A stretch of 64,000 nt of DNA from Escherichia coli (GCF_044324875.1 NZ_CP172185.1), one strand, 5' to 3'. Shown: positions 40,846-60,808, counted from the stretch's first letter. Notes: generated by a model from the sequence alone, not told the origin. Translations and numbers: made by a program.

Positions 40846-41118
40846 GAGTTCCCCGCGCCAGCGGGGATAAACCGCTTCATCTGTCGGGCTAACTGGACAA
40901 AGAAACGAGTTCCCCGCGCCAGCGGGGATAAACCGTCGGTTTGACATCAAAGAAGCCATCAATCAGGGAGTTCCCCGCGCCAGCGGGGATAAACCGGTCT
41001 GGCCATAGGAACAAAGAAATTTGTCTTTGAGTTCCCCACGTCAGCGGGGATAAACCGGACACAGAGCGCCGCTATAGCGCCTATGCCAAGAGTTCCCCGC
41101 GCCAGCGGGGATAAACCA
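40846..41118 (+). CRISPR. type I-E CRISPR array (CRISPR2.1 position), 5 repeats and 4 spacers
   Basis: 29-bp repeats GAGTTCCCCGCGCCAGCGGGGATAAACCG at 40846, 40907, 40968, 41029 (variant CCCCACGTCAG) and 41090 (terminal, ends A); 32-bp spacers at 40875-40906, 40936-40967, 40997-41028, 41058-41089. Confidence 0.95.
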
Positions 41119-41571
41119 CCATATAACCCGTTATCTCTTTCTCAAGTTTTTATATTAGCAGTACTTGTAATAAGCAACATATCCACGTAACACCTCATGT
41201 TCAAAATAGTTCTCCATGCCAGAGAAGTTCACAATTATCGATACAAAAAATTAAATTTAATCAAAGTGTTATTTGTATGATTCTTAAATCGTTAAGAAAT
41301 TTTAATATATTATTTTTTTAATATTAATTAATGCCTGTTAATTTTTTCTTTAGAATAACAGTGTATTTTTTAAGCTTATTATTCATTGATTAAGTAATAA
41401 ATCTGGAAATTTGTCTTTGTTTTGAGGCTAATGAGTGATTTTACATAATCGCCTCTATACGCTGTTGATGAATAGTTCTTATGAATAAAGATATCCAGTT
41501 CATACTTTAAGTGAAAATTGATAAAGTGCGATTCGTATTGTCTTTTATTCTAAAGACATCGAGTGTAGTTA

Positions 41572-41709
41572 ATATTCCTTGTAAAAACAGGGATAAACCG
41601 AACTAGTTAAAGTTTTTATTATGTTCCCTGCATCAGCGGGGATAAACCGGACTTGTTATCATTTTTTAAGTTGTCGAACTTATGTTCCCCGCGTCAGCGG
41701 GGATAACCA
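41572..41709 (+). CRISPR. degenerate CRISPR remnant (CRISPR2.2-3-like)
   Basis: Three decayed repeat-like units ending GGGGATAAACCG (41572-41600, 41621-41649, 41682-41709, the last with a 1-bp deletion); intervening segments of 20 and 32 bp; AT-rich leader-like region upstream. Confidence 0.6.
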
Positions 41710-41755
41710 TTCAGGTATGTTCAGGCCGGGCAGTTTCCCGCCCGGTCTTCCTCAC

Positions 41756-43234
41756 TTACGCATTCGACCAGCTCTGGATCGAATCTTCATTCCCCAGCTC
41801 ACCATGCATCACTTCATACGATTTTTTCAGGATCACATCAGTGTGTTTGGTTAGGTCTTTGAAAATGCCTTTATTCATCGCGTTGTAGCGTTTGGCGTTG
41901 CTCTCAACAGGCATAAAGATATCTTTCACGCGAACCATTTTGTCGACAGCCGTTGCGTAATCCGGGTATAGCCCCAGACCTACCGCCGTATTAATCGCTG
42001 CCCCCAGGCTTGCACAACCATTAATGGCGTTACGGCGTGCCGGAAGGTTGAACACGTCGGCAAAAATCTGCATAAACAGATCGCTGTTCGAACCGCCGCC
42101 AGTAATGATCACATGCTTTGCAAAGTGATTCATTTCATTACACATATTGTCGTAATTGTTCTTCAGCGTCAGCGCCACGCTTTCCAGTATCGAACGATAT
42201 ATCCATGCGTAATCCATGCTGGAATCAAAGCCAATCATAATCCCGCGTTTGTACGGTTCCCACGGATTGGTCAGCCAGTCCAGCACCGTCATCAGACCAT
42301 TACAGCCTGGCGGCACACAAGAAGCTTTTTTGTTGAGTAAATCTTCCGGTGAAAGATCCTGCGCCCTGGCATCCTGAATTAACGACTCGCCTAGCATGTC
42401 GCGCAGCCAGCTCACCGTCCACATGCCTTTGCGAATACCGTAACCTTCATACAGCAAGGTTTGCGGAATAGAAGACATAATCGGCCAGTACGCTACCGGA
42501 TCTTTCGGCAGTACTTTGCCGTTCATCATCAACGCGATGTAAGTGCCAAGAGAAATTACCGCAGTTTCATCATCCAGTAACCCGGCTCCCAGTGCTTCTA
42601 CCGGTTTATCACTGGTGGTACAAACAACCGGCAGCCCAGCCGGGAAATGTGTCGCCAGCGCGGCTTGAGGAGTGATATGCCCAAGAACAGTGCCCGGCAT
42701 TTGCACATCAAACAGCATATGACGGGGGATATTAAACTTCTCCATGACTGCGGCATCTTCACTCCATGCCCAGGTCTTATAATCCACCGGCCACTGACCA
42801 AAATAGTTGGCGATATTGTCTTTAAACTCGCCGGTTAAGCGATGCGTCAGATAACCCGAAAAAGAGGTGACATATGCCACGTCAGGATTCGTATGTTCGT
42901 AAGGGCGTGTAACGCGTGCATCCTGCCAGCTAATCAACGGCGCAGCTGGCGTGCCATCGGCTTTCAATAACGCACGGCAGCAACGGATGGATCCCAGACC
43001 AATACCGACAATATCTTCTTTATTTCCGGCAAACTGACTCATCAAATCGTGACCGGCAAAGCATAATGATGCCCATAAATCGTCGTCAGGATGTTCTGCG
43101 GTATCGGCATCTGGCGTGTGCATCGGCTGCAATAAGCCTTTGCCTTCGCAAACCACATTACCTTCCAGATCGTACATCACCACTTTTGTGCTCTGACTTC
43201 CACCATCAATCCCTATGATGTATTTTTTCGACAT
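41756..43234 (-). CDS. ygcE: FGGY-family carbohydrate kinase YgcE
   Basis: 492-aa ORF beginning MSKKYIIGIDGGSQSTKVVMYD. Confidence 0.85.
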   Translation of the reverse strand: MSKKYIIGIDGGSQSTKVVMYDLEGNVVCEGKGLLQPMHTPDADTAEHPDDDLWASLCFAGHDLMSQFAGNKEDIVGIGLGSIRCCRALLKADGTPAAPLISWQDARVTRPYEHTNPDVAYVTSFSGYLTHRLTGEFKDNIANYFGQWPVDYKTWAWSEDAAVMEKFNIPRHMLFDVQMPGTVLGHITPQAALATHFPAGLPVVCTTSDKPVEALGAGLLDDETAVISLGTYIALMMNGKVLPKDPVAYWPIMSSIPQTLLYEGYGIRKGMWTVSWLRDMLGESLIQDARAQDLSPEDLLNKKASCVPPGCNGLMTVLDWLTNPWEPYKRGIMIGFDSSMDYAWIYRSILESVALTLKNNYDNMCNEMNHFAKHVIITGGGSNSDLFMQIFADVFNLPARRNAINGCASLGAAINTAVGLGLYPDYATAVDKMVRVKDIFMPVESNAKRYNAMNKGIFKDLTKHTDVILKKSYEVMHGELGNEDSIQSWSNA

Positions 43235-43260
43235 GATTTTTCTCCTGTAATTTTCTGGAC

Positions 43261-44538
43261 TTACTTGCTGCTAGCCATAGCAGGGGCGCTATCAGCAGTA
43301 CGAATTTTTTGGAACAGCAAAAAGGTAAAGACGATCACCATGGCAAGCGCCGCCATGCCCATCAGCCACATATTGCGGTAGGCTTCTGCAGCGGGCAGGG
43401 TGTCTTGCCAGTAGCCGATAATCGGGTAAACGAAGACATCCGGCAGGAATCCAATCACCGAACAAATACCTACCGTGGTGCCCATAATGTAAGACGGTGT
43501 TCTCGCTTCGCCAGGGCAGGCCCAGTACAGCCCGCGTGAGGCGTAACAGGTGAATCCCAGCAGTAAAATCAGGCCAATCCCCATCGCGACCGATTGCGGG
43601 TTAGAGTTCGTGACGAGCAGGGCAGTTAACGCCAGCAAGCCGAGTACGGAAAGGATTTGGATCACGCGGGTAGGGGATTTCACTTTGCTGTAGGTGGTGA
43701 TAATGCCACCAAGTGGGCCGCACAGTGCGCGGAAGATTTTGTTGATCACAATCCCCATGTAGCTCGCCGCCACCAGCGACATGCCGTACATTTCGGTCAG
43801 ATAGTTGGTGGAGTAACTCAGAATGGCGTAGATGGTGAAGACACCAAAAATCACCATGCTGCAATACCAGGTGGTGCTGATGCGCAAAACAGCCAGGATG
43901 TCGCTAAGCTGGAATGACTGTTTTTCTTCGTTATTGGTATTGCACAGGTTGTTGTTATCGCTAACAAAAAACCAACACAAAATGCCCAGCAGAATGTAAA
44001 CCACACTATAGATAATAATGACCGTTTTCAGGCTGGCGCTGTCATCCGGTGCAAAGCGAGAAAAGACCCACATGGTAAACACCGCCAGCGACATTACACC
44101 GACGCCGCGCAGCCCTTCCATCCAGCCCATAATTTTCCCTTGCTCGCTATGATCGCCCAGCAACGAGGCGGCTTTAATCGACACCGACCACAGCATTAAA
44201 ATAGTGGTTATCGCAAAGGCGACCTGAATACAGAGCATTACCCACAGCGGTGGATATGTTGCCATTAACAGACCCAGTAATCCGGTAATGATCATCGCGG
44301 AAGTAATCATTTTGCGGTGTGAAAATTTATCGGCAATAACGCCGCTGGGGGCATAAAGAATAATAGCCGCAATACCAAAGGTACTCATTATTAAACCTAT
44401 CTCGGTATTGCTGAATCCCATAAATTTCGCCATGGGAATTTGATAAATATAACGTAAATAAGCCAGGTCGAAACTAACGCCGCCGCTAAAACTAATTATC
44501 GCGAGGGTTATCCAACGGCGATATGAGTTGTGTTGCAT
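43261..44538 (-). CDS. yqcE: MFS transporter YqcE
   Basis: 425-aa polytopic MFS ORF; synteny. Confidence 0.8.
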   Translation of the reverse strand: MQHNSYRRWITLAIISFSGGVSFDLAYLRYIYQIPMAKFMGFSNTEIGLIMSTFGIAAIILYAPSGVIADKFSHRKMITSAMIITGLLGLLMATYPPLWVMLCIQVAFAITTILMLWSVSIKAASLLGDHSEQGKIMGWMEGLRGVGVMSLAVFTMWVFSRFAPDDSASLKTVIIIYSVVYILLGILCWFFVSDNNNLCNTNNEEKQSFQLSDILAVLRISTTWYCSMVIFGVFTIYAILSYSTNYLTEMYGMSLVAASYMGIVINKIFRALCGPLGGIITTYSKVKSPTRVIQILSVLGLLALTALLVTNSNPQSVAMGIGLILLLGFTCYASRGLYWACPGEARTPSYIMGTTVGICSVIGFLPDVFVYPIIGYWQDTLPAAEAYRNMWLMGMAALAMVIVFTFLLFQKIRTADSAPAMASSK

Positions 44539-44856
44539 ATCGTATTCCCATTTGTAATAGACAAAAAAAAGAGAAAAGTAAGCCGCCCTTTCAGGTGGAT
44601 TACTTTTCTCAGGTCTCTAGTAATTGCAATAAGAAATAACATGGAAAGCAGTGGTGTTGTGTGAGAGTAATCACGCTTCTGCTTTTTAAAATTATTTGAC
44701 AATTCGAATATCACACTGTGATTACGATCACATTAGCGATTATGCCCTTATGATAAAAATTATCTCCAGTTACCAGAGATAATGAGAAAGGTAACTTCCC
44801 TCTCGCGGGGGAAGTTACCTTTCTTTTTTTTTGCCTTACGGAAATTGGAGCTAACT

Positions 44857-45642
44857 ATGTCAATCGAATCTCTCAATGCGTTCTCAATGGATTTTTTCTC
44901 CCTGAAAGGCAAAACCGCAATTGTTACCGGCGGGAATAGCGGTTTAGGCCAGGCATTTGCCATGGCGCTGGCCAAAGCAGGCGCAAATATCTTTATTCCA
45001 AGCTTCGTTAAAGATAACGGCGAAACAAAGGAAATGATTGAAAAACAGGGTGTTGAGGTGGACTTCATGCAGGTGGATATCACCGCAGAAGGCGCGCCGC
45101 AGAAGATAATCGCCGCCTGTTGCGAACGTTTCGGTACCGTCGATATTCTGATTAACAATGCCGGTATTTGTAAGCTGAATAAGGTGCTGGACTTCGGTCG
45201 TGCCGACTGGGACCCGATGATTGATGTGAACCTGACCGCCGCATTCGAGTTAAGCTATGAAGCTGCAAAAATTATGATCCCGCAGAAAAGCGGTAAAATC
45301 ATTAATATCTGTTCATTATTCTCTTACTTAGGTGGACAATGGTCACCTGCATATTCTGCCACTAAACATGCTCTTGCCGGATTCACCAAAGCTTATTGTG
45401 ATGAACTAGGTCAATATAATATTCAGGTAAATGGTATTGCCCCTGGCTATTATGCAACAGATATTACGCTGGCGACACGCAGTAATCCAGAAACTAATCA
45501 GCGCGTTCTTGATCATATTCCGGCAAACCGTTGGGGCGATACTCAGGATTTAATGGGCGCAGCCGTATTCCTCGCAAGTCCGGCTTCAAATTATGTTAAC
45601 GGGCATTTATTAGTGGTCGATGGCGGTTATTTAGTGCGCTAA
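44857..45642 (+). CDS. ygcW: short-chain dehydrogenase/reductase YgcW (KduD-like)
   Basis: ORF from 44782, but MSIESLNAF at 44857 with a GGAG RBS is preferred; TGGNSGLG Rossmann motif and YxxxK. Confidence 0.85.
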   Translation: MSIESLNAFSMDFFSLKGKTAIVTGGNSGLGQAFAMALAKAGANIFIPSFVKDNGETKEMIEKQGVEVDFMQVDITAEGAPQKIIAACCERFGTVDILINNAGICKLNKVLDFGRADWDPMIDVNLTAAFELSYEAAKIMIPQKSGKIINICSLFSYLGGQWSPAYSATKHALAGFTKAYCDELGQYNIQVNGIAPGYYATDITLATRSNPETNQRVLDHIPANRWGDTQDLMGAAVFLASPASNYVNGHLLVVDGGYLVR

Positions 45643-45711
45643 TCCATAACGGTGGTTTCTGTTTTCTCTTATTAATGATTATTCCATTTTTATTATCAGG
45701 AAGGAATTACT

Positions 45712-47166
45712 ATGTCTTTATCTCGCGCAGCGATTGTCGACCAGCTAAAGAAAATTGTTGGTGCAGATCGCGTAATTACCGATGAAACAGTATTAAAGAA
45801 GAACAGTATTGACCGTTTTCGCAAATTTCCGGATATTCATGGCATTTATACTTTGCCGATTCCGGCAGCGGTCGTAAAACTCGGTTCCACAGAACAAGTA
45901 TCCCGTGTGCTGAATTTTATGAATGCGCACAAAATTAACGGTGTGCCGCGTACCGGTGCTTCCGCTACCGAAGGTGGGCTGGAAACCGTTGTGGAAAACT
46001 CGGTGGTGCTCGACGGCTCTGCCATGAATCAAATCATTAATATTGATATTGAGAATATGCAGGCCACGGCGCAATGCGGAGTTCCGCTGGAAGTGCTGGA
46101 AAACGCGTTGCGTGAAAAAGGTTACACCACGGGGCATTCTCCGCAGTCAAAGCCGCTGGCGCAGATGGGCGGCCTGGTAGCAACCCGCAGTATCGGGCAG
46201 TTCTCCACACTCTACGGCGCAATCGAAGATATGGTCGTTGGTCTGGAAGCAGTATTGGCTGATGGCACCGTAACACGCATTAAAAACGTACCACGCCGCG
46301 CGGCAGGCCCGGACATTCGTCACATCATCATCGGCAACGAAGGTGCATTGTGCTATATCACTGAAGTAACAGTGAAAATCTTTAAGTTCACCCCGGAAAA
46401 CAACCTCTTCTACGGCTATATCCTGGAAGACATGAAAACCGGCTTCAACATCCTACGTGAAATCATGGTGGAAGGGTATCGTCCGTCGATCGCTCGTTTG
46501 TATGACGCTGAAGATGGCACCCAACACTTCACCCATTTTGCCGACGGAAAATGCGTGCTGATCTTTATGGCTGAAGGTAACCCTCGCATTGCGAAGGCGA
46601 CGGGCGAAGGGATTGCTGAAATCGTGGCACGTTACCCGCAATGCCAGCGAGTGGACAGCAAGCTGATCGAAACCTGGTTTAACAACCTGAACTGGGGACC
46701 GGATAAAGTAGCTGCCGAACGTGTGCAGATCCTCAAAACCGGCAACATGGGCTTTACCACCGAAGTGTCCGGCTGCTGGAGCTGCATTCACGAAATCTAC
46801 GAAAGCGTTATTAACCGTATTCGTACCGAGTTCCCGCACGCCGACGACATCACCATGCTGGGCGGTCACTCCTCTCATAGCTATCAGAACGGCACCAACA
46901 TGTACTTCGTCTACGACTACAACGTCGTTGACTGTAAGCCGGAAGAGGAAATCGACAAGTACCACAATCCGCTCAACAAAATCATCTGCGAAGAAACCAT
47001 TCGCCTCGGTGGTTCGATGGTGCACCACCACGGTATCGGTAAACATCGCGTTCACTGGAGCAAACTGGAACACGGCAGCGCGTGGGCGTTGCTGGAAGGG
47101 CTGAAAAAGCAGTTCGATCCTAACGGCATTATGAATACGGGTACTATCTATCCGATTGAAAAATAA
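45712..47166 (+). CDS. ygcU: FAD-linked oxidoreductase YgcU (GlcD / alkyl-DHAP synthase-like)
   Basis: 484-aa ORF with FAD-binding PCMH domain. Confidence 0.85.
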   Translation: MSLSRAAIVDQLKKIVGADRVITDETVLKKNSIDRFRKFPDIHGIYTLPIPAAVVKLGSTEQVSRVLNFMNAHKINGVPRTGASATEGGLETVVENSVVLDGSAMNQIINIDIENMQATAQCGVPLEVLENALREKGYTTGHSPQSKPLAQMGGLVATRSIGQFSTLYGAIEDMVVGLEAVLADGTVTRIKNVPRRAAGPDIRHIIIGNEGALCYITEVTVKIFKFTPENNLFYGYILEDMKTGFNILREIMVEGYRPSIARLYDAEDGTQHFTHFADGKCVLIFMAEGNPRIAKATGEGIAEIVARYPQCQRVDSKLIETWFNNLNWGPDKVAAERVQILKTGNMGFTTEVSGCWSCIHEIYESVINRIRTEFPHADDITMLGGHSSHSYQNGTNMYFVYDYNVVDCKPEEEIDKYHNPLNKIICEETIRLGGSMVHHHGIGKHRVHWSKLEHGSAWALLEGLKKQFDPNGIMNTGTIYPIEK

Positions 47167-47259
47167 TGTGTCAGGCAGCGTTCCGCGATGACGGAGCGTT
47201 GCCTTTTCGGCTTCTCAGGCGAGAAGCCGTTCTTATTACCGGACAATGAAGGGGTAAAG

Positions 47260-48597
47260 ATGAACACTTCACCGGTGCGAATGGATGATTTACCGCTTAA
47301 CCGTTTTCACTGTCGAATTGCTGCGCTCACTTTCGGCGCACACCTGACCGACGGTTATGTTCTAGGCGTCATTGGTTACGCCATTATTCAGCTTACGCCC
47401 GCCATGCAACTGACGCCGTTTATGGCGGGTATGATCGGCGGCTCGGCGCTCCTTGGTTTGTTTCTTGGCAGCCTGGTTCTTGGGTGGATCTCCGACCATA
47501 TTGGTCGGCAAAAAATCTTCACCTTCAGCTTTTTGCTGATTACGCTCGCTTCGTTCTTGCAATTTTTTGCCACCACGCCAGAGCATCTTATTGGATTGCG
47601 CATTTTGATCGGCATTGGTCTGGGAGGCGATTACTCAGTCGGTCACACCTTGCTGGCTGAATTTTCCCCGCGCCGCCATCGCGGTATTTTGCTGGGCGCA
47701 TTCAGTGTGGTGTGGACCGTAGGCTATGTGCTGGCAAGTATTGCCGGACATCACTTTATTACCGAAAGCCCGGAGGCCTGGCGCTGGCTGCTGGCATCAG
47801 CGGCGTTACCAGCCTTGCTGATTACGCTGCTACGTTGGGGCACGCCGGAATCGCCACGCTGGCTACTGCGCCAGGGGCGTTTTGCTGAAGCTCACGCTAT
47901 CGTGCATCGCTACTTTGGTCCCCATGTTTTACTGGGCGATGAAGTGGCAACGGCGACCCATAAACACATCAAAACATTGTTCTCTTCGCGCTACTGGCGG
48001 CGCACAGCGTTTAACAGCGTCTTCTTTGTCTGCCTCGTAATCCCATGGTTTGTGATTTATACCTGGCTGCCAACTATCGCCCAAACTATTGGTCTGGAAG
48101 ATGCGCTGACAGCCAGCCTGATGCTTAATGCGTTGTTAATTGTGGGCGCGCTGCTGGGATTAGTTCTGACGCACCTGCTGGCACATCGCAAATTTTTGCT
48201 GGGAAGTTTTTTGCTGCTGGCGGCAACGCTGGTCGTGATGGCCTGTTTGCCTTCCGGCAGTTCATTAACGCTGCTGCTTTTTGTTCTCTTCAGCACCACC
48301 ATTTCGGCAGTCAGTAATCTGGTGGGCATTTTGCCTGCGGAAAGTTTTCCTACTGACATTCGCTCGCTGGGCGTCGGTTTTGCCACCGCCATGAGTCGGT
48401 TGGGCGCGGCAGTAAGTACGGGCCTGCTGCCGTGGGTGCTGGCGCAGTGGGGAATGCAAGTCACCTTATTGCTCCTGGCGGCAGTGTTGTTGGTTGGTTT
48501 TGTCGTGACCTGGCTATGGGCACCAGAAACCAAAGCACTCCCGCTGGTGGCGGCGGGAAATGTAGGAGGTGCGAATGAACATTCTGTTAGCGTTTAA
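47260..48597 (+). CDS. ygcS: MFS sugar transporter YgcS
   Basis: ORF from 47188; start at MNTSPVRMDDLPLNRF (47260) preferred; 12-TM MFS. Confidence 0.8.
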   Translation: MNTSPVRMDDLPLNRFHCRIAALTFGAHLTDGYVLGVIGYAIIQLTPAMQLTPFMAGMIGGSALLGLFLGSLVLGWISDHIGRQKIFTFSFLLITLASFLQFFATTPEHLIGLRILIGIGLGGDYSVGHTLLAEFSPRRHRGILLGAFSVVWTVGYVLASIAGHHFITESPEAWRWLLASAALPALLITLLRWGTPESPRWLLRQGRFAEAHAIVHRYFGPHVLLGDEVATATHKHIKTLFSSRYWRRTAFNSVFFVCLVIPWFVIYTWLPTIAQTIGLEDALTASLMLNALLIVGALLGLVLTHLLAHRKFLLGSFLLLAATLVVMACLPSGSSLTLLLFVLFSTTISAVSNLVGILPAESFPTDIRSLGVGFATAMSRLGAAVSTGLLPWVLAQWGMQVTLLLLAAVLLVGFVVTWLWAPETKALPLVAAGNVGGANEHSVSV

Positions 48598-49354
48598 AGC
48601 CGAACCGGATGTCGGAATGCTGGCGGAAAAAGAGTGGCAGGCGGCGGCTCAGGGTAATAGCGGACCGGATGTTTCGCTTCTGCGAAGTTTACTCGGTGCT
48701 GATGAACAGGCTGCCGCCGCGCTGCTGTTGGCGCAGAGAAAAAACGGTACGTCGATGTCTTTAACCGCGTTGAGCATGGGGGATGAACGGGCGTTGCACT
48801 GGCTGCGCTATCTCATGGCTCTTGGGTTTGAGGAAGCTGTATTGCTGGAGACGGTGGCAGATCTGCGCTTTGCGCCGGAATTTGTCGCTCGCCATATTGC
48901 CGAATGGCAGCGTCAGAATCCGCTGGATCTGATAATTACCGGCTGCCAAAGCAGCGAAGGGCAGAATGGGCAAACGCCATTTTTGCTGGCGGAAATGCTG
49001 GGCTGGCCCTGCTTCACCCAGGTGGAGCGTTTTACTCTCGACGCGCCGTTTATCACCCTTGAACAGCGTACTGAAAACGGGCTGCGCTGTTGCCGGGTTC
49101 GCTTGCCTGCGGTGATTGCCGTGCGTCAGTGCGGTGAAGTGGCCTTGCCAGTACCGGGAATGCGTCAGCGAATGGCGGCGGGGAAAGCAGCAATTATCCG
49201 TAAAACTGTTGCTGCCGAATTGCCAGCGATGCTGTGTCTGCAACTGGCAAGAGCAGAGCAACAACGCGGAGCGACGCTGATTGATGGGCAAACGGTAGCA
49301 GAAAAAGCGCAAAAGCTATGGCAGGACTATTTACGCCAAAGGATGCAGCCATGA
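48575..49354 (+). CDS. ygcR: electron-transfer flavoprotein beta-subunit-like YgcR (FixA-like)
   Basis: ETF-beta-like ORF; overlaps the ygcS 3' end by 23 bp. Confidence 0.8.
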   Translation: MNILLAFKAEPDVGMLAEKEWQAAAQGNSGPDVSLLRSLLGADEQAAAALLLAQRKNGTSMSLTALSMGDERALHWLRYLMALGFEEAVLLETVADLRFAPEFVARHIAEWQRQNPLDLIITGCQSSEGQNGQTPFLLAEMLGWPCFTQVERFTLDAPFITLEQRTENGLRCCRVRLPAVIAVRQCGEVALPVPGMRQRMAAGKAAIIRKTVAAELPAMLCLQLARAEQQRGATLIDGQTVAEKAQKLWQDYLRQRMQP

Positions 49355-50211
49355 ATATCGCAATTGTGACAATAAATCAGGAGAATGCCGCAATAGCGAG
49401 CTGGCAGGCGGCGCAGGATTTCAGCGGTTGTACCCTGGCGCACTGGAAGATTGAACCTCAGCCCGCTGTGGCGGAACAGGTGCTGGATGCGCTGGTGGAA
49501 CAGTGGCAGCGAACGCCTGCGGACGTTGTTCTCTTTCCGCCGGGAACGTTTGGCGATGAACTGTCGACCCGGCTGGCCTGGCGTTTACATGGTGCAAGCA
49601 TCTGCCAGGTGACTTCGTTAGATATTCCAACCGTAAGCGTGCGCAAATCCCACTGGGGAAATGCGCTAACGGCGACGCTGCAAACAGAAAAACGCCCGCT
49701 ATGCCTTTCCCTGGCGCGTCAGGCGGGAGCAGCGAAAAACGCCACGTTGCCCTCTGGTATGCAGCAACTGAACATTGTCCCAGGTGCGCTTCCCGACTGG
49801 CTGGTTAGCATAGAGAATCTGAAAAATGTTAGCCGCGACCCATTAGCTGAAGCCAGACGGGTGCTGGTGGTGGGGCAGGGCGGAGAGGCAGATAACCAGG
49901 AAATCGCTATGCTGGCAGAAAAGCTGGGAGCCGAAGTGGGCTACAGTCGGGCACGAGTGATGAACGGTGGCGTTGATGCCGAAAAAGTGATTGGTATTTC
50001 TGGACATCTGCTGGCACCTGAGGTGTGTATTGTTGTTGGCGCTTCCGGCGCAGCAGCGTTAATGGCGGGCGTACGCAATAGCAAGTTTGTGGTGGCGATT
50101 AATCATGACGCCAGCGCGGCGGTATTTTCACAGGCAGATGTTGGCGTGGTTGATGACTGGAAAGCGGTGCTGGAGGCTCTGGTGACAAACATTCACGCAG
50201 ATTGCCAATAA
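49351..50211 (+). CDS. ygcQ: electron-transfer flavoprotein alpha-subunit-like YgcQ (FixB-like)
   Basis: 286-aa ORF starting MNIAIVTINQ; ATGA start/stop overlap with ygcR. Confidence 0.8.
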   Translation: MNIAIVTINQENAAIASWQAAQDFSGCTLAHWKIEPQPAVAEQVLDALVEQWQRTPADVVLFPPGTFGDELSTRLAWRLHGASICQVTSLDIPTVSVRKSHWGNALTATLQTEKRPLCLSLARQAGAAKNATLPSGMQQLNIVPGALPDWLVSIENLKNVSRDPLAEARRVLVVGQGGEADNQEIAMLAEKLGAEVGYSRARVMNGGVDAEKVIGISGHLLAPEVCIVVGASGAAALMAGVRNSKFVVAINHDASAAVFSQADVGVVDDWKAVLEALVTNIHADCQ

Positions 50212-50325
50212 CGTGCTGCCGGATGATCCTGCCTACGGTTCTGGGCTGGGGACTTGTAAGCCTGATAAGACGCGTCAAGCGTCGTATCAGGCGCTGAATG
50301 TCGGATGTGGCGTGCAGCCTACAAA
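50212..50325. repeat. BIME-like cluster of REP elements between convergent ygcQ and ygcP
   Basis: Canonical REP GCCTGATAAGACGCGTCAAGCGTCGTATCAGGC at 50260-50292, flanked by partial GCCGGATG...CCTAC units. Confidence 0.75.
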
Positions 50326-50357
50326 TCACACAAATTCAACTCGTTACGAGTATCCCG

Positions 50358-50933
50358 TCAAAGCAATTTTTTCGCTAACGTCCAGACCCCGGTATTCGTG
50401 GTGGAAAGCGCCACAACACCCGCGTTAATCGCATTACGCGCATCTTCTTCATCGCACACCAGCCCGCCGGCAATCAGCGGTTGGCGGATTTTCTCCGTCA
50501 CCCAGCCTAGCACTTTAGGCATACAGCCTGGCAGGATCTCAATACAATCCGGATTCGATTGCGCAACTTGCTTATCAATGTTGTGAAACGAAATCGAATC
50601 AACAATAAACAGGCGATGAATACAGAAAAAACCTTCCGCTCTTGCCGCTTTTAGCATCGATGCTTTCGTGCTGATAATGCCGTCCGCCTCGGTCACCAGT
50701 TTCAGAAACTGAATCACCACTTCTTTGTTCGATGCGCCTTCCAGCAAATCAACATGAATAAAGGCATATTTTCCGGCGTTTTTAATCTTTTTAACGATAT
50801 TACTGATGGTGCAGATATTGCCGTACAACACGGAAATAAACTGGCATTCAGAGTCGATTGCCAGTTGCAGGCTGGCATTATCTTTAACGGCAGCAATCAC
50901 CGGATTCTGGCGGAGCAGGTGTAAGAGGGGCAT
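50358..50933 (-). CDS. ygcP: GlpP-like glycerol-3-phosphate-responsive antiterminator family protein YgcP
   Basis: 191-aa ORF; synteny. Confidence 0.75.
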   Translation of the reverse strand: MPLLHLLRQNPVIAAVKDNASLQLAIDSECQFISVLYGNICTISNIVKKIKNAGKYAFIHVDLLEGASNKEVVIQFLKLVTEADGIISTKASMLKAARAEGFFCIHRLFIVDSISFHNIDKQVAQSNPDCIEILPGCMPKVLGWVTEKIRQPLIAGGLVCDEEDARNAINAGVVALSTTNTGVWTLAKKLL

Positions 50934-50949
50934 AAATTATCCTTATTAT

Positions 50950-51210
50950 TTATCCAAAGCGGTAGGTGATGCCGAATCCGGAAGGCGGATAGTGCCACTG
51001 TTGTAGCGTTTTTTCATCGCACAGCAAACGGCAGGTGCCGCACTCCAGACAATTACGATAATCAACGTGCAAATCACCCTCCGGTGTGAGCGAAAAAAGA
51101 CCAGCCGGACAAGCGTTAATCAACTGTTGTGCCGTCTGGCGCTCAACGGAGTCTGCCGGAACAATATGTGGCGCATCAGCAGCGCGCCAGAGATTACGGG
51201 CTACAGACAT
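50950..51210 (-). CDS. ygcO: ferredoxin-like protein YgcO (FixX-like)
   Basis: 86-aa form starting MSVARNLW with Cys cluster CLECGTCRLLC; ORF extends to 51246. Confidence 0.8.
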   Translation of the reverse strand: MSVARNLWRAADAPHIVPADSVERQTAQQLINACPAGLFSLTPEGDLHVDYRNCLECGTCRLLCDEKTLQQWHYPPSGFGITYRFG

Positions 51211-52472
51211 CGAATACTCCTGACAACATCGCCCGCCAGATGCCACAGGCCATGACGACGTAAATGACGCCAGAATAACTGGCGCAGCGGTGGAACAGGT
51301 TTATCACCCTGATCCCATAAATCACGGGAAATATCCTGCATTAACGCAGGCCACGCCCGATACCAGCCAGGGCGTTGCAAAAGCGCCGGAACATGCTGAT
51401 AACGCTGTAAAACATCCCACAGCAGGCTGCGCTCTACGTTGTGATGATAAAGCGGAAACAGATTTTGCGGCTCGCGGTGCTGGCAGGCGCTTATTAGCGT
51501 TTGTGCCGCCGCCTGCGCGCCAGTTAGCGCCATATCCATGCCGCGCACGGAAATTCCGGTATTGACGCAACTGCGCAACGCATCGCCCACCAGCAGTCAG
51601 CCGTTACCGGCGTATTGCATCGGCATACTGTGTAAGCCACCTTCTGGCACCAGATGCGCACCATACTCCAGTGATTCCGTGTTTTTGATAAGCGGGCGCA
51701 CTGCCGGATGCGTTTTAAAGCGAGCCAGCAGCTCGCTTGCCGGAACACGACTTTGCGTAAGGGAAGAGAGCGGGCAAACAATCCCTAACGAGAGCGTTTG
51801 TTGATTAGTATAAAGAAATGCGCCGCCGGGTAAGTCATCACAGATCCCGCCGCTGAACAGCAACGCTGCGCCTTCGTTATTCTCCAGATGAAAACGTTCT
51901 TCAATAGCGGATGTTTCCAGCGACAGCACTTCTTTGATCCCCAACGCCATCGCTTCGCCAGCAGGACGAGTCACTAACCCGTGACGTTCAGCCAGGACGC
52001 TGTTGGCACCTTCTGCCAGCACCACATAACGGGCGCGGAGAATATCGTCACCACAAATGACACCACACACCCTGCCGTTTTCTTCATACAGCGCATCCAC
52101 CGTCGCACCGGGGATGCATTCGACACCTTCTTTTTCGGCTTCGGCAACCAGCCACGGATCGAACCGTGCACGTAATACACTCCAGGATTCACCGCCGGGC
52201 TGTAAGCTGGAAAACGTCGTTGCGCCATCCGGCGTTAGCAGAGAAAGGCTTTCGTGAGTGATGCGTCGTTCAAGAGGCGCGGTCAGATGAAATTGCGGGA
52301 GGAGTTCCGCGAGCGCATGGGTGTATAAACGCCCGCCGGAAAGATTTTTGCTGCCGGGGATTTCAGCGCGTTCCAGTAACAGAACGGACAAACCTGCCCG
52401 CGCGCAGCGTAAAGCACAAGCGGTACCTGCTATACCCGCACCAATAATAATAATGTCGCAGTTGTCTTCCAT
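51201..52472 (-). pseudogene. ygcN: FixC-like FAD-dependent oxidoreductase YgcN interrupted by an in-frame TGA
   Basis: N-part MEDNCDIIIIGAGIAGTACAL... ends at TGA (51597-51599); the same frame continues LLVGDALRS... to 51201; combined length 423 codons. Confidence 0.7.
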
Positions 52473-52549: not shown

Positions 52550-52915
52550 TCATTCGCCGCGATAGATACAGCCTGCAGTACAGGTTTCTTTTACCATCAC
52601 CGCACTTAACAGCGGCACAACGGGTTTAACCTGATCCCAAATCCATTTTGCTAAAACTTCGCTGGTTGGGTTTTCCAGACCTGGAATATCATTGAGATAA
52701 TGGTGATCGAGGCGCTCATAAGTTGGCTTAAACGCCGCTTTCAGTTCAGCGAAATCGATAATCCAGCCCGTATGCGGATCGACCTCCCCGGTAATTTCCA
52801 GTCGCACCATAAAGGAATGCCCGTGCAGGCGACCACATTTATGCCCTTCCGGGACGTGTGGTAAGCGGTGAGCGGCTTCGAAGGTGAAATCTTTAAATAA
52901 CGTGGTGGACATCAT
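52550..52915 (-). CDS. queD: 6-carboxy-5,6,7,8-tetrahydropterin synthase QueD
   Basis: 121-aa form [35 protein letters not shown]; ORF extends upstream to 52999. Confidence 0.9.
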
Positions 52916-57968: not shown

Positions 57969-58319
57969 CCACCACGCGGGGGTAAAACCCCGCGTATTGA
58001 ATTGTGATGGTTTGGTCTCCTGCACCCTTTTTTAATTTATATTGTTTATGTGAATATTATGCCTATGTTTATTATTCATATATATTACGGATGAAAATTA
58101 TTTGATTATTCATAATGTGCAAAATGGCATCTGAATCGATCGCAGTTTGGCATTCGAATCGATCATGATTTGGCATCCATCTCCGATCACAGTTTGGCAT
58201 CACAATCGATCACGATTTGGCATGCTTCCGATCATTGATTGGCATCCTGCCAGTCACTCCGGGAATTAACTCTTTTCACCACAGTCTCCATTGCCGTGTT
58301 TAAACCAGTGGAGACGTCA

Positions 58320-59885
58320 ATGTCCAGAAAGAGAAAATCCAGGAGCACTATGGAAACCTGTTTTAAGATCCTTCAGCTCAAGTTCGACAAGAAGCTGACT
58401 AACCGTTGTATCGGACTGACGTTACACATCAGCGCCTCAACCGTTTTTGAGGTTCTTGCCCGCTTCAAAGCCTCTTCTCTGTCATGGCCATTACCTGCTG
58501 ATATATCCCATGACACGCTGGAGAAACTCATTTTTCCGCCCAAAGACACCTTTGCATCAGAGCTTGTAATGCCTGACATGTTGTACTTCGATACGGAAAT
58601 GAGAAAACCAGGTGTGACGCGGCAACTGTTGTGGATGGAATACAAGGCACAGGCGGGTAACAAAGCGATGGGATACTCGCACTTCTGCCGTTGCTACCGG
58701 GAGTGGAAAAAAACGCGACGTCTCTCCATGCGCCAGGAGCATCGTGCCGGCGAAAAGCTTTTTATCGACTTCTGTGGTCCTACGGTTCCTGTTATTAATC
58801 CGGACACCGGTGAGATACGCCGCGTGGCAATCTTCGTGGCCGTAATGGGGGCGTCCAACTATACCTACGTTGAAGCGTGCGAAGGTCAGGACATGATGTC
58901 ATGGTTAAATGCCCACAGCCGTTGCCTGACCTTCCTGGGCGGCGTACCGAAGCTGCTCATCCCCGATAACCTCAGAAGCGCAGTGAAAAAGGCCGATCGA
59001 TATGAGCCTGTCATCAACGACAGTTATCAGGCACTGGCTGAGCACTATGGCACGGTTATCATCCCGGCCCGACCACGCAAACCTAAAGATAAACCAAAAG
59101 CAGAAAACGGCGTCCTCATCGTTGAACGATGGCTTCTTGCCCGCATCCGTAATGAAACCTTCCACACGCTCAGGGCGCTGAATGCGCGCCTTAGGGAGTT
59201 ACTGACAGACATGAATAACCGGCCAATGAAGGGGTACGGCAATCAAACCCGTGCAGAACGCTTCCGCATACTGGATGCGCCAGCACTCTCTCCGCTGCCT
59301 CTGGCACCTTATGAATACACGGAATACAAAGCTGTGAAGGTTGGCCCTGACTACCACGTTGAATATGCCCGTCACTGGTACTCCGTTCCACACGAACTGG
59401 TCGGTCAGCGTCTGTCACTGAAGGCGGGGCAGTCGGTGGTACAGCTCTGGCACAAGGGGCAGTGTGTGGCGCAACATCCGCGCAGCACACATGAATATAA
59501 ACACACAACCAATCCGCTTCACATGCCAGAGCGCCACCGGCAGCACGGGACATGGACACCGGAACGCCTGATCGAGCAGGGAAAACGTACGGGCCCGTCC
59601 ACAGGCCGGGTGGTTGAATCCATGCTGAAGGCAAAACCCCATCCGGAACTGGCTTATCGTGCAGTTCTGGGGCTGCTGGCACTTCAGAAAAAATACGGCC
59701 CGGAACGGCTGGAAAAGGCCTGTTACGTTGCCCTGCACTATAACGCCCCTGACAGACGCTTTATCGACAATCTGCTGCGTCACCATCGGGAGAACCTGGA
59801 GCTTCCATTATCCCGCCAGGGCGAACAACATCCGGCATATGCTTCAGAGCATGAAAACCTGCGTGGTCCGGGCTACTACCACTGA
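58320..59885 (+). CDS. istA: IS21-family transposase IstA
   Basis: N-terminal HTH and DDE integrase core; start at MSRKRKSRS (58320) with GGAG RBS preferred over the ORF-track start 58239. Confidence 0.8.
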   Translation: MSRKRKSRSTMETCFKILQLKFDKKLTNRCIGLTLHISASTVFEVLARFKASSLSWPLPADISHDTLEKLIFPPKDTFASELVMPDMLYFDTEMRKPGVTRQLLWMEYKAQAGNKAMGYSHFCRCYREWKKTRRLSMRQEHRAGEKLFIDFCGPTVPVINPDTGEIRRVAIFVAVMGASNYTYVEACEGQDMMSWLNAHSRCLTFLGGVPKLLIPDNLRSAVKKADRYEPVINDSYQALAEHYGTVIIPARPRKPKDKPKAENGVLIVERWLLARIRNETFHTLRALNARLRELLTDMNNRPMKGYGNQTRAERFRILDAPALSPLPLAPYEYTEYKAVKVGPDYHVEYARHWYSVPHELVGQRLSLKAGQSVVQLWHKGQCVAQHPRSTHEYKHTTNPLHMPERHRQHGTWTPERLIEQGKRTGPSTGRVVESMLKAKPHPELAYRAVLGLLALQKKYGPERLEKACYVALHYNAPDRRFIDNLLRHHRENLELPLSRQGEQHPAYASEHENLRGPGYYH

Positions 59886-59901
59886 CAGAAGGAACAACAG
59901 T

Positions 59902-60657
59902 ATGAGTGATAACCTGTTAAACAAACTGACCCAACTGAAACTCCCGGCGATGGCCGGGAGCCTGATACGGCAGCGGGAAACGCCTCAGACCTACGACGAA
60001 CTGTCGTTCGAGGAAAGGCTGACGCTGCTGGTTGATGACGAGCTTCTGAGCAGGGAAAACAGCCGTGTGGCACGGTTGAGAAAAAATGCCGGCCTGAAAT
60101 ACCAGGCAACACCGGAAGGGCTGCGCTATCCGGCCTCAAGAGGTCTGCGGGCTGAACAGATGAGAGAACTGCTGAACGGCCACTACATAACCCACAGGAA
60201 AAACCTGCTGATAACCGGTCCGACAGGATGTGGCAAGAGCTGGATAGCCAATGCGCTGGGCGAACAGGCATGTCGACAGAAACACAGCGTCCGGTACTGT
60301 AGAACCGGGCGATTACTGGAACAACTGGCTCAGGGACGTGTTGATGGCAGCTGGCTGAAATATCTGAAACAGTTGCAAAAAATACAGGTTCTAATCCTGG
60401 ACGATCTGGGGCTGGAACAGTTAAGTAACGCCCAGTGTAATGACCTTCTGGAGCTCATAGAGGATCGTTACGGACAAAGCAGCACGATAGTGGTAAGCCA
60501 GTTCCCGGTAGATAAATGGCATGGTCTGATGGAGAACCCAACAACAGCAGATGCCATCCTGGACAGACTGGTACATAACTCACACCGAGTGGTCCTTCAG
60601 GGAGAGTCACTGAGGAAAAATCCCCCGGTAGTGGAAAGCAGCGAAAAAACGCGTTAA
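59902..60657 (+). CDS. istB: IS21-family ATP-binding helper IstB
   Basis: 251-aa form MSDNLLNKL... with Walker A GPTGCGKSW and Walker B LILDDLG; ORF-track start 59659 overlaps istA. Confidence 0.85.
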   Translation: MSDNLLNKLTQLKLPAMAGSLIRQRETPQTYDELSFEERLTLLVDDELLSRENSRVARLRKNAGLKYQATPEGLRYPASRGLRAEQMRELLNGHYITHRKNLLITGPTGCGKSWIANALGEQACRQKHSVRYCRTGRLLEQLAQGRVDGSWLKYLKQLQKIQVLILDDLGLEQLSNAQCNDLLELIEDRYGQSSTIVVSQFPVDKWHGLMENPTTADAILDRLVHNSHRVVLQGESLRKNPPVVESSEKTR

Positions 60658-60808
60658 AAAGCGGTAGAAAAAGTTAAGTTCCCGGTTGATCGAATGGATG
60701 CGAATCGCTGATCGGACTTCGATGCCAATCCGTGATCGAATAGAGCGGAATACGCACATAATGTAAATATTTTATTGAACGATATATATCACAGATAATT
60801 TTTAATAT

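Follow-up and report, generated by a model that had tools for sequence, protein, structure and literature searches.

The window analysed here, a stretch of 64,000 nucleotides from Escherichia coli NZ_CP172185.1, carries at positions 41756-52472 the ygc cluster, ten E. coli genes (ygcE to ygcN) of unassigned function. All coordinates are positions in the whole window. The cluster would encode a catabolic pathway controlled jointly by CRP and by YgcP, a protein of the GlpP antiterminator family. A 1-substituted glycerol or polyol would be processed successively by a kinase, a short-chain dehydrogenase/reductase (SDR) and an enzyme resembling alkyl-dihydroxyacetone-phosphate synthase (ADPS), and electrons would pass via YgcRQ and YgcNO to quinone. 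We hold this reading tentatively, with a probability of about 0.4. Its regulatory part is well supported, and the pathway is probably not an ordinary sugar pathway. The literature searched contained no substrate assignment for the ygc genes, in line with an earlier reading of the window from its sequence alone (the original prediction), which had stated that the substrate is not established.

The ten genes are, in order along the window:

41756-43234, minus strand: ygcE, FGGY-family kinase, 492 residues
43261-44538, minus strand: yqcE, major facilitator superfamily (MFS) transporter, 425 residues, first gene of the yqcE-ygcE operon
44857-45642, plus strand: ygcW, KduD/gluconate-5-dehydrogenase-like SDR, 261 residues
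45712-47166, plus strand: ygcU, ADPS-like flavin adenine dinucleotide (FAD) enzyme, 484 residues
47188/47260-48597 (two starts), plus strand: ygcS, MFS transporter of sugar-porter / aromatic-acid / organic-cation type
48575-49354, plus strand: ygcR, divergent electron-transfer flavoprotein (ETF) beta subunit, 259 residues
49351-50211, plus strand: ygcQ, divergent ETF alpha subunit, 286 residues
50358-50933, minus strand: ygcP, GlpP-family (PF04309) antiterminator protein, 191 residues
50950-51210, minus strand: ygcO, FixX-like ferredoxin, 86 residues, with a CP...CxxCxxC cysteine motif in the translation
51201-52472, minus strand: ygcN, FixC-like FAD oxidoreductase, a pseudogene here

These genes had been predicted in this order and orientation, and all ten are found, with ygcN interrupted. 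The predicted family labels hold at the superfamily level (FGGY, two MFS, SDR, FAD_binding_4/FAD-oxidase_C, ETF, FixX/FixC-like and PF04309). The genes form three transcription units, ygcWUSRQ, yqcE-ygcE, and ygcN-ygcO-ygcP. The 3' end of ygcS overlaps ygcR by 23 nucleotides, and the overlapping reading frames of ygcS, ygcR, and ygcQ point to translational coupling.

The two divergent operons yqcE-ygcE and ygcWUSRQ are separated by 318 nucleotides, which hold a CRP site between two leaders:

44717-44732, between the leaders: perfect CRP consensus site, TGTGATTACGATCACA
44767-44834, plus strand: ygcW leader element; helix P1 pairs 44769-44774 with 44790-44795; 19-bp terminator stem 44784-44825, followed by a U-run
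44563-44626, minus strand: yqcE leader element; helix P1 pairs 44624-44619 with 44604-44599; terminator stem 44610-44571; U-run 44570-44563

The same 16-mer is a CRP target at ygcW/yqcE in chromatin immunoprecipitation sequencing of enterotoxigenic E. coli H10407 (PMC4287617), and yqcE-ygcE is listed as Crp-activated (PMC8085971). The leaders are 62-65 nucleotides long, and the ygcW terminator lies 23 nucleotides before the start codon. The ygcW leader folds with -42.4 kcal/mol (z -6.8), and the yqcE leader forms a 15/17-bp stem followed by U8 (fold z -4.2). A conserved GTTACT-AGAG sequence lies upstream of the terminator, and its hexamer is complementary to AGTAAC in the terminator 5' arm. 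The resulting 6-bp helix P1 closes an AGAG-N4-5-GAGAAA loop and is mutually exclusive with the terminator.

The longest ygcW open reading frame (ORF) begins at ATG 44782 (286 residues; 44782-44856 being extra) and spans the leader terminator. It is the RefSeq start, at 44857 with GGAG upstream, that agrees with the RNA element, and long-ORF calls hide the leader.

P1 pairs at 6/6 positions in 97 of the 105 distinct instances, against a mean of 2 in shuffled sequences. The pairs fall into the types ATTACT/AGTAAT (33), GTTACT/AGTAAC (33), and GTTACC/GGTRAC (24); single cases are GTTGCC/GGCGAC, GTTGCT/GGCAGC, and GTCGCC/AGCGAC, the last pairing at 5/6 positions. In an alignment of 36 sequences (A3), 98.1% of P1 cells are paired, compared with 17-63% in slid controls, and double changes occur at 5/6 pairs, covariation counts that overstate the number of independent events, as many of the leader sequences are related. 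The outer stem of the terminator is paired in 92.6% of cells. Column 25 shows covariation with two partners, one in P1 and one in the terminator, which is the pattern that two mutually exclusive folds would produce. The two elements within one genome differ by compensating changes, and the P1 types are mixed across phyla. A covariance model of the element (R1) detects exactly two full-length copies in the window, at 44767-44831 on the plus strand (74.9 bits, E 1.2e-12) and at 44565-44626 on the minus strand (62.8 bits, E 3.8e-10).

The leaders belong to no Rfam family and gave only sub-threshold chance matches (rliE at E 0.88, naRNA4, and sR51). As far as Rfam and the literature searched show, GlpP-type leader control in E. 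coli and the conserved RNA element are both new.

The distribution of the element was followed in 80 genomic loci with a YgcU homologue, which were scored for the ten E. coli proteins and whose neighbouring genes were clustered. Nearly all enteric loci have a terminator with the same 5'-arm sequence, GAGAAAAGTAAC, in front of the SDR gene, and this terminator is also present in Clostridia, Bacilli, and Saccharopolyspora; terminators are kept in more than 100 leaders. In the enteric loci, yqcE has an orthologous element in front of it. Of the 59 loci with a GlpP-like gene, 58 contain the element (pattern and model hits combined), and it is absent from all 12 complete loci that lack such a gene, where GntR or sigma-54 regulators are found instead. 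This co-occurrence spans four phyla. The element precedes SDR and MFS operons, YgcU in Clostridia, six BCCT genes, OpuC-type ABC operons, and MttB-family genes. A scan of metagenomes with the element pattern yielded eight loci, mostly from Bacillota lineages already seen, with the element again in front of MttB and ABC-transporter operons and with no new gene families. In one locus (L097), an OpuC-type ABC transporter and the glpP-like gene are transcribed together, and a divergent MFS-YgcU-EtfBA-SDR-kinase operon bears the RNA element.

In the locus of Limnobaculum eriocheiris (L036, 3102-3180), a single palindromic terminator with flanking A- and T-runs is common to the ygcW and yqcE leaders and is bidirectional. 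This leader has no recognisable upstream GTTACT partner.

YgcP matches the PF04309 (G3P_antiterm) model over positions 1-173 of 173 with an E value of 1.6e-62, and it also matches PDB entries 3kts and 1vkf. The ratio of nonsynonymous to synonymous substitution rates (dN/dS), obtained for the window against E. albertii, Klebsiella, and Citrobacter, is 0.01-0.04 for ygcP. No leader element was found upstream of ygcN or ygcP, so the ygcN-ygcO-ygcP unit would express YgcP independently of the leaders that it would control. Co-regulation, which the original prediction presumed for the cluster, is supported for two of the three transcription units by the common CRP site and the same leader element.

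GlpP loaded with glycerol-3-phosphate is established to prevent leader termination in Bacillus subtilis (PMC9604022, PMC10573289). Canonical GlpP loci were taken from metagenomes for comparison. The GlpP relatives in them are about 34% identical and adjoin genes for glycerol kinase, GlpF, and glycerol-3-phosphate dehydrogenase. Two of the canonical leaders have the same plan as the ygc element, with P1, a tandem-GAGA loop, and a terminator. The first is built as CUGCU-AGAGAGAUGAGAG...AGCGG plus terminator and scores 24.9 bits against the model, and the second as GGCU-GAGAUUGAGAG-AGCC plus terminator. Because these two leaders have the same plan, the ygc element is a sub-type of the RNA target common to the GlpP family as a whole.

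The likeness to the glp system of B. subtilis, with its glpD, glpFK, and glpTQ leaders, extends to several features. Both systems have a PF04309 protein, intrinsic terminators in the 5' leaders, a regulator encoded apart, an FGGY kinase that makes the presumed effector, and catabolite control on top of antitermination. However, the ygc targets are an SDR, an ADPS-like flavoenzyme, an ETF, and MFS/BCCT/OpuC transporters rather than glp genes, and no MIP, GlpK-equivalog, GlpD, or GlpT protein is encoded among the genes behind the ygcWUSRQ and yqcE-ygcE elements. In addition, the ygc element has its own sequence, GTTACT-AGAG-N-GAGAAAAGTAAC, against which model the canonical glp leaders reach only about 25 bits, the host is a Gram-negative enteric bacterium using CRP, and the effector is probably not glycerol-3-phosphate.

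The chemistry of the pathway is suggested mainly by YgcU. YgcU and all its homologues carry the PF01565 and PF02913 domains. In a search with the family profile, the nearest solved structures are those of ADPS, 4bby and 2uuu (E 2.5e-55), with glycolate oxidase (8.6e-37), LctD, and D-lactate dehydrogenase ranked lower. Residues R262, Y398, and H438-440 of YgcU align to R419, Y578, and H615-617 of ADPS in the guinea-pig numbering, which was checked on the mutant chains R419H (4bc7) and Y578F (4bca) and on Y508 and R352 of the Dictyostelium enzyme. All these YgcU residues are invariant in a ten-sequence alignment covering several phyla (A2), and the His-His-His motif is present in 82 of the 82 YgcU homologues collected. 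R447 of the Dictyostelium enzyme lies outside the aligned block; an invariant arginine of YgcU, R337, is found at the expected distance and is not counted as its equivalent. Unlike YgcU, a GlcD-like paralogue encoded beside the ETF in anaerobes possesses E-H, the motif of 2-hydroxyacid dehydrogenases. The original label of FAD-linked oxidase thus stands for the FAD_binding_4/FAD-oxidase_C family, but the catalytic residues and the structure ranking make YgcU specifically ADPS-like and not GlcD-like. The homologues of Sporomusa, Alkalihalobacillus, Desulfobacula, and Photobacterium share 71-73% identity with YgcU, an unusually high conservation.

In ADPS, the tyrosine abstracts a C1 proton of the dihydroxyacetone-phosphate moiety, the carbanion adds to flavin N5, and the C1 substituent leaves and is replaced by a nucleophile (PMC3509576). 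The ADPS reaction involves no net redox change (PMC3509576), so stoichiometric electron flow from YgcU to an ETF is not implied by the homology. The adjacent ETF itself would argue for net electron transfer at YgcU.

The ETF and FixCX-like proteins are divergent members of their families. NCBIfam scores, here and below, were judged against the curated equivalog cut-offs, and none of the proteins reaches its cut-off. YgcR scores 44 bits against the ETF-beta model (cut-off 350), YgcQ 79 bits (cut-off 240), and YgcO 76.9 bits against the FixX model (cut-off 166). An intact YgcN orthologue scores 379 bits against PRK10015 and 366 bits against FixC (cut-off 610). Of the two flavin-contacting residues R249 and T266 of human ETFA, YgcQ keeps the arginine and has a conservative change to serine at the second, and Q285-H286 are replaced by A-L, so that the canonical GxSGAIQH reads GASGAAAL. 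The solved EtfA structures that were aligned keep the glutamine. Every EtfA encoded directly beside YgcU, in all phyla, has the derived G[AV]SGA[AP]A[FL] motif. As the motif is common to all YgcU-linked EtfA proteins, the YgcQ-type ETF is a specialised, orthologous form.

Two loci, of Geosporobacter (L063) and a Clostridia metagenome-assembled genome (L068), encode a second EtfB/EtfA pair after the GlcD-like dehydrogenase. The EtfA of this pair has the sequence GVSGS[IV]QF and keeps the glutamine.

YgcU is the most constant neighbour of this ETF. EtfBA follows directly after YgcU in anaerobes, with or without the extra GlcD-like dehydrogenase, and FixC-like and FixX-like genes are confined to Enterobacterales among the loci examined. 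The presence of a dedicated ETF and FixCX-like module in the catabolic cluster, as originally proposed, is supported by these data. The dN/dS values are 0.13-0.47 for ygcR, 0.13-0.23 for ygcQ, 0.11-0.15 for ygcO, and 0.05-0.13 for ygcN, compared with 0.01-0.07 for ygcE, yqcE, ygcW, ygcU, ygcS, and ygcP. All ten genes are under purifying selection by this measure.

Two known systems resemble this module. E. coli fixABCX and ydiQRST, with caiTABCDE, similarly place EtfB/EtfA, FixC-like, and FixX-like proteins beside a catabolic operon, and the transporter family found in ygc homologues is that of carnitine and betaine systems. All four ygc proteins are below the Fix cut-offs, however, the Q-H of EtfA is replaced, the FixC-like gene is broken here, and the ygc partner is an enzyme of the VAO family and not an acyl-CoA dehydrogenase. 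LctBCD of Acetobacterium woodii (PDB 7qh2) has a VAO-family dehydrogenase encoded beside EtfB and EtfA, and LctD and LctC are among the solved-structure matches of YgcU and YgcQ. It differs in that YgcU has His-His-His in place of the E-H (G-E-H-G) motif. YgcQ (286 residues) aligns only to LctC 139-393 and lacks the N-terminal ferredoxin-domain extension, and E. coli has no counterpart of the LctD-like gene found in the anaerobic loci.

The remaining enzymes are less specific. YgcE scores best against XylB (142 bits, cut-off 380) and LsrK (138 bits), both far below cut-off, and its assignment as XylB, LsrK, GlpK, GntK, AraB, FucK, or RhaB fails at the equivalog level, the other models being further below than XylB. 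Its closest solved structure is that of the autoinducer-2 kinase LsrK. YgcW scores 350.1 bits (cut-off 369) and 275.5 bits (cut-off 338.9) against two KduD-named models and also matches the GolD/DthD family; no kduI or other pectin-pathway gene is found near ygcW. YqcE shows weak similarity only, to the D-galactonate and PgtP transporter subfamilies, and yqcE lies beside the kinase gene in all Enterobacterales loci examined. YgcS is a homologue of NiaP, an MFS transporter of organic-cation type. Overexpression of YgcS increased the production of nicotinamide mononucleotide from nicotinamide (PMC8601175).

A 9-bp G+C-rich hairpin, CGGCTTCTC-AGGC-GAGAAGCCG, is located at 47208-47229 on the plus strand, between the ygcU stop codon and the K-12-type ygcS start. 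It falls within the longer RefSeq ygcS frame and could be an internal attenuator or an RNA-processing site, or bear on the choice of the ygcS start.

The homologous loci contain a recurrent core of SDR, FGGY kinase, and YgcU in Enterobacterales, Bacillota, Desulfobacterota, Actinomycetota, and SAR324. Identities to the E. coli proteins are 65-80% for the SDR, 65-76% for YgcU, and 47-58% for the kinase, and 40-61% for the GlpP-like protein, which is usually present. A YgcW homologue is always found beside YgcU. BCCT or OpuC/OsmF-type ABC transporters occur in 21 of the 35 non-enteric loci, many of the remainder being short contigs, and CaiT (BCCT) is among the transporter matches. Recurrent accessory genes encode a YghZ/YdjG-type aldo-keto reductase, an aldehyde dehydrogenase resembling betaine-aldehyde dehydrogenase, and a protein with a formaldehyde-activating-enzyme (Fae)-like domain. 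Further accessories are a class-III-like zinc alcohol dehydrogenase, a SurE-like phosphatase, and MttB-family quaternary-amine methyltransferases accompanied by proline-racemase-like and PanB-like genes. Judged by the betaine-type transporters and the MttB genes, many organisms may use a substrate whose leaving group bears a quaternary amine. The proposal that the substrate is a sugar, polyol, or acid is weakened by these transporters and by the RNA element, which stands before several of them and before an MttB-family gene.

Two patterns among the loci stand apart. In L033-L049 and L080 (Serratia, Erwinia, Pantoea, Rahnella, and other Enterobacterales), the kinase encoded beside yqcE is 43-50% identical to YgcE, and YqcE, YgcW, and YgcU are 69-86% identical; Firmicute kinases are nearer to E. 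coli YgcE (52-58%). By these identities, one lineage of enterics has apparently replaced its kinase gene with another. A Fae-like protein (140 bits, above the domain cut-off) and an aldo-keto reductase occur together in L034, L035, L039, L045, L048, and L049 (Erwinia/Pantoea type) and in L050 (SAR324). Their companions are an aldehyde dehydrogenase and ygcS in the enteric loci and a BCCT gene in SAR324. The recurrence of the pair hints that a C1 or aldehyde by-product is formed.

From these elements, we infer the following scheme for the form of the substrate, the kinase and SDR conversions, the C-X step, the electron path, and the action of the YgcP effector, as well as for the sequence of reactions and the identity of X. 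cAMP-CRP at the one central site would activate both divergent promoters. Both transcripts would by default fold into the strong intrinsic leader terminator. Effector-loaded YgcP would stabilise P1, which uses the terminator 5' arm, and thereby allow read-through into ygcWUSRQ and yqcE-ygcE. If YgcP parallels GlpP, whose effector is glycerol-3-phosphate, its own effector would most likely be the phosphate ester made by YgcE.

The substrate would be a small polar compound of the form X-CH2-CHOH-CH2OH, or a longer polyol, with X probably a quaternary-ammonium (betaine-type) group in the non-enteric homologues. After import via YqcE and/or YgcS, YgcE would phosphorylate the terminal hydroxyl, and YgcW would oxidise the adjacent carbinol to a ketone, giving a 1-substituted dihydroxyacetone phosphate as the substrate of YgcU. 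With its tyrosine base, arginine, His-His-His loop, and flavin N5, YgcU would then break or oxidise the C-X bond to give a product at the triose-phosphate level and XH. Electrons left on the YgcU flavin would pass to YgcRQ, to YgcN/YgcO, and on to the quinone pool. In an oxidative variant, hydrolysis of a flavin iminium adduct would yield a 2-oxoaldehyde phosphate and reduced flavin, which would explain the need for an ETF. The aldo-keto reductase and aldehyde dehydrogenase neighbours would fit such an outcome.

Several observations weigh against this scheme. YgcU lacks the N-terminal 140-180 residues of ADPS (484 versus 584-658 residues), the alignments beginning at ADPS residue 137-180, and the AlphaFold2 model of YgcU, built from the 10-sequence alignment, has a mean predicted local distance difference test score (pLDDT) of 65.9, too poor for an analysis of the pocket or channel. 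The redox-neutral reaction of ADPS also counts here, as does the absence of the ETF from the Halobacillus, Virgibacillus, Thalassobacillus, Saccharopolyspora, SAR324, Erwinia, and Pantoea loci. Relative to the core, the ETF and FixCX genes are evolving at a rate 5-10 times higher. The FixC-like gene is truncated here and in other Escherichia lineages, so that the quinone link may be dispensable. The E. coli cluster has MFS transporters in place of BCCT/OpuC and is devoid of MttB, aldo-keto reductase, aldehyde-dehydrogenase, and Fae-like genes, so the enteric substrate may differ from that of the other phyla.

The strongest competitor is the catabolism of an ordinary neutral polyol, ketose, or sugar acid without a leaving group, which we regard as rather unlikely but as carrying appreciable weight. 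YgcE would make a polyol phosphate, YgcU with the ETF would act as a flavin-dependent polyol-phosphate dehydrogenase like EryB or GlpD, and YgcW would interconvert a second carbinol and ketone. The template is erythritol catabolism in Brucella, in which the FGGY kinase EryA is followed by EryB, a flavin dehydrogenase of the polyol phosphate that feeds the respiratory chain. Both systems would combine an FGGY kinase with flavin-dependent oxidation of a polyol phosphate, but EryB belongs to the GlpD (DAO) family and not to VAO/ADPS, and the isomerases of the Brucella pathway have no counterpart in the ygc cluster. The sugar-porter and anion:cation-symporter types of the E. coli MFS transporters accord with a neutral polyol, as do the KduD/gluconate-5-dehydrogenase-like character of YgcW, its GolD/DthD match, the nearness of YgcE to xylulokinase, LsrK, and glycerol kinase, and the CRP control typical of sugar operons. 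VAO-family enzymes commonly oxidise alcohols, and the ETF link fits a true dehydrogenase. Such a pathway would leave unexplained why YgcU keeps the tyrosine, arginine, and His-His-His of ADPS without the E-H motif, and why, in other phyla, the regulon defined by the RNA element includes betaine-type transporters and an MttB-family gene. For a tetritol or pentitol, an isomerase, aldolase, or epimerase would be needed as well, and none is encoded beside the core.

A more specific form of the ADPS-like scheme, unlikely as a whole, takes YgcE-YgcW-YgcU as ether-lipid biosynthesis run in reverse. The ether-lipid steps comprise alkylglycerol kinase, alkyl-dihydroxyacetone-phosphate reductase (an SDR), and ADPS (also AGPS), and YgcE, YgcW, and YgcU would match the kinase, SDR, and ADPS steps one-for-one in the reversed order. 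YgcU has the same FAD fold and the same catalytic arginine, tyrosine, and His-His-His as ADPS. In contrast to ADPS, it is encoded in a catabolic, CRP-controlled operon with small-solute transporters and has a dedicated ETF, whereas ADPS is without a redox partner. An inert C-O, C-N, or C-S bond would be broken via a flavin-N5 adduct, the ETF would re-oxidise the flavin anaerobically, an uncatalogued GlpP-family riboregulator would sense the phosphorylated intermediate, and E. coli would carry a core-genome version for a gut substrate. Speculatively, the substrates could be ether-linked head groups of deacylated betaine lipids (DGTS/DGTA type), glycerophosphocholine-like compounds, or other onium-glycerol compounds.

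It is distinctly unlikely that the ETF and FixCX proteins are not the partner of YgcU, which would then be redox-neutral, and that they serve the GlcD-like dehydrogenase in anaerobes, as in LctBCD, and persist in E. coli as a decaying remnant. The GlcD-like paralogue with the E-H motif does follow EtfBA in 17 non-enteric loci, and the lack of net redox change in ADPS, the raised dN/dS of ygcR, ygcQ, and ygcO (0.11-0.47), the loss of the canonical Q-H at the EtfA FAD site, the absence of the module from the Erwinia and Pantoea loci, and the truncation of ygcN here and in other Escherichia lineages would all fit decay. But EtfBA lies beside YgcU without a GlcD-like gene in L071, L073, L077, L086, L087, L089, L097, and all ETF-carrying enteric loci, and ygcS, ygcR, and ygcQ are translationally coupled by frame overlap. 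The dN/dS values are well below 1, and the derived EtfA motif, being common to all YgcU-linked copies across phyla, indicates a conserved and specialised protein rather than a decaying one.

A reductive mode like that proposed for E. coli cai/fix, in which quinol electrons would reach YgcU by way of YgcNO and YgcRQ and YgcU would reduce the substrate or cleave it reductively, making it an anaerobic electron sink, is very unlikely: the YgcU-linked ETF is found mainly in anaerobes and facultative anaerobes and is missing in aerobic Bacilli and Saccharopolyspora, FixCX-like proteins adjoin the ETF as in fixABCX, and the BCCT family includes substrate:product antiporters such as CaiT, but the ATP spent by the kinase, the oxidising SDR step, and the triose-phosphate-like end follow the logic of a carbon source, CRP activation fits carbon catabolism, and FixCX is absent from all non-enteric loci examined.

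For the ADPS-like scheme, the elements are of known kinds, namely an antiterminator-controlled catabolic operon and an ETF-linked flavoenzyme, and there is a moderate chance that the chemistry is new. To our knowledge, the ADPS-type active site of YgcU, the specialised ETF clade, and the cross-phylum link to betaine-type transport have not been described before. The ten ygc genes are near-universal in E. coli and under strong purifying selection, which implies that a real, unrecognised nutrient is at stake. The operons are probably not expressed in standard media, which the leader terminators would account for. Given the ADPS-type active site and the betaine-type transporters in the homologous loci, the field of candidates narrows to 1-substituted glycerols or polyols with a leaving group, probably an onium group. 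If the scheme is true, ADPS-type flavin chemistry would be seen in a catabolic role for the first time, and abundant head-group compounds of algae or hosts would have a degradation route. The RNA element would extend GlpP-type antitermination from the glycerol genes of Gram-positive bacteria to Enterobacterales and to a different pathway, and could join the catalogues of RNA families.

The cluster is matched in 5,416 of 5,426 complete E. coli genomes and is present in a single place, with at least 80% query coverage, in 5,060 of these 5,426. The best identity, 98.5%, is to strain GMF054, whose RefSeq annotation carries all ten gene names, ygcE to ygcN. The G+C content of the cluster is 0.44-0.56 in 2-kb windows, similar to that of its flanks. 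The label of an island in the original prediction is not borne out by this prevalence and composition, and a horizontally acquired or strain-specific island was rejected on the same grounds. A mention of "ygcO" in a review of the nitrogen phosphotransferase system (PTS-Ntr) proved to be a misprint for ycgO.

The ygcN gene, predicted to encode a FixC-like oxidoreductase, is a pseudogene in the window. An in-frame TGA at 51597-51599 changes codon 292 of 423 from TGG (W292stop), replaces the tryptophan of the GNGWLLVGDA motif, and splits the gene into ORFs of 291 and 129 residues. The 61-mer around the stop has no exact match in the 5,426 complete E. coli genomes, the best match always having one mismatch. 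The exact 291-residue product is recorded for E. coli (SRB26725.1) on 118 public contigs, which makes a sequencing error unlikely. Selenocysteine insertion or read-through was rejected, as the aligned reference has a TGG tryptophan codon at this position and the change is of a single base; no formal search for a selenocysteine insertion sequence (SECIS) was made. The W292stop allele is thus real and lineage-specific. Other truncated forms of YgcN, of 268-373 residues, are present in E. coli and E. albertii within the same 90% protein cluster, which suggests that the FixC-like gene has been lost repeatedly and independently. In this strain, W292stop would remove the last, FixC-like electron step. 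Its polarity may also lower the expression of ygcO and ygcP, which would keep both leader operons terminated.

Both flanks are as predicted, with CRISPR repeats on the ygcE side (40846-41121 and 41621-41713) and queD-cysJIH on the other. The CRISPR array comes in two parts, five repeats with 61-nucleotide spacing and, about 0.5 kb further on, two degenerate repeats that lie just before the ygcE stop codon. The opposite flank begins with:

52550-52915, minus strand: queD; the cysJ start lies at 53231, with cysJIH beyond

Three further features were seen in the window. Between the convergent genes ygcQ and ygcP, positions 50259-50341 on the minus strand match Rfam naRNA4, a nucleoid-associated RNA derived from repetitive extragenic palindromic (REP) sequences, below threshold (29.5 bits, gathering score 59.5). 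The segment 36173-39694 has no counterpart in the aligned GMF054 locus and contains three minus-strand ORFs, of 382 residues (no NCBIfam match), 307 residues (TPM/Psb32-like, ygcG-like), and 200 residues (LemA/MamQ-like). An IS21-family insertion sequence, not present in the closest complete genome, GMF054, occupies 58118-60757 between cysH and cas3 and carries an istA-like ORF at 58239-59885 (284 bits) and an istB-like ORF at 59659-60657 (257 bits).

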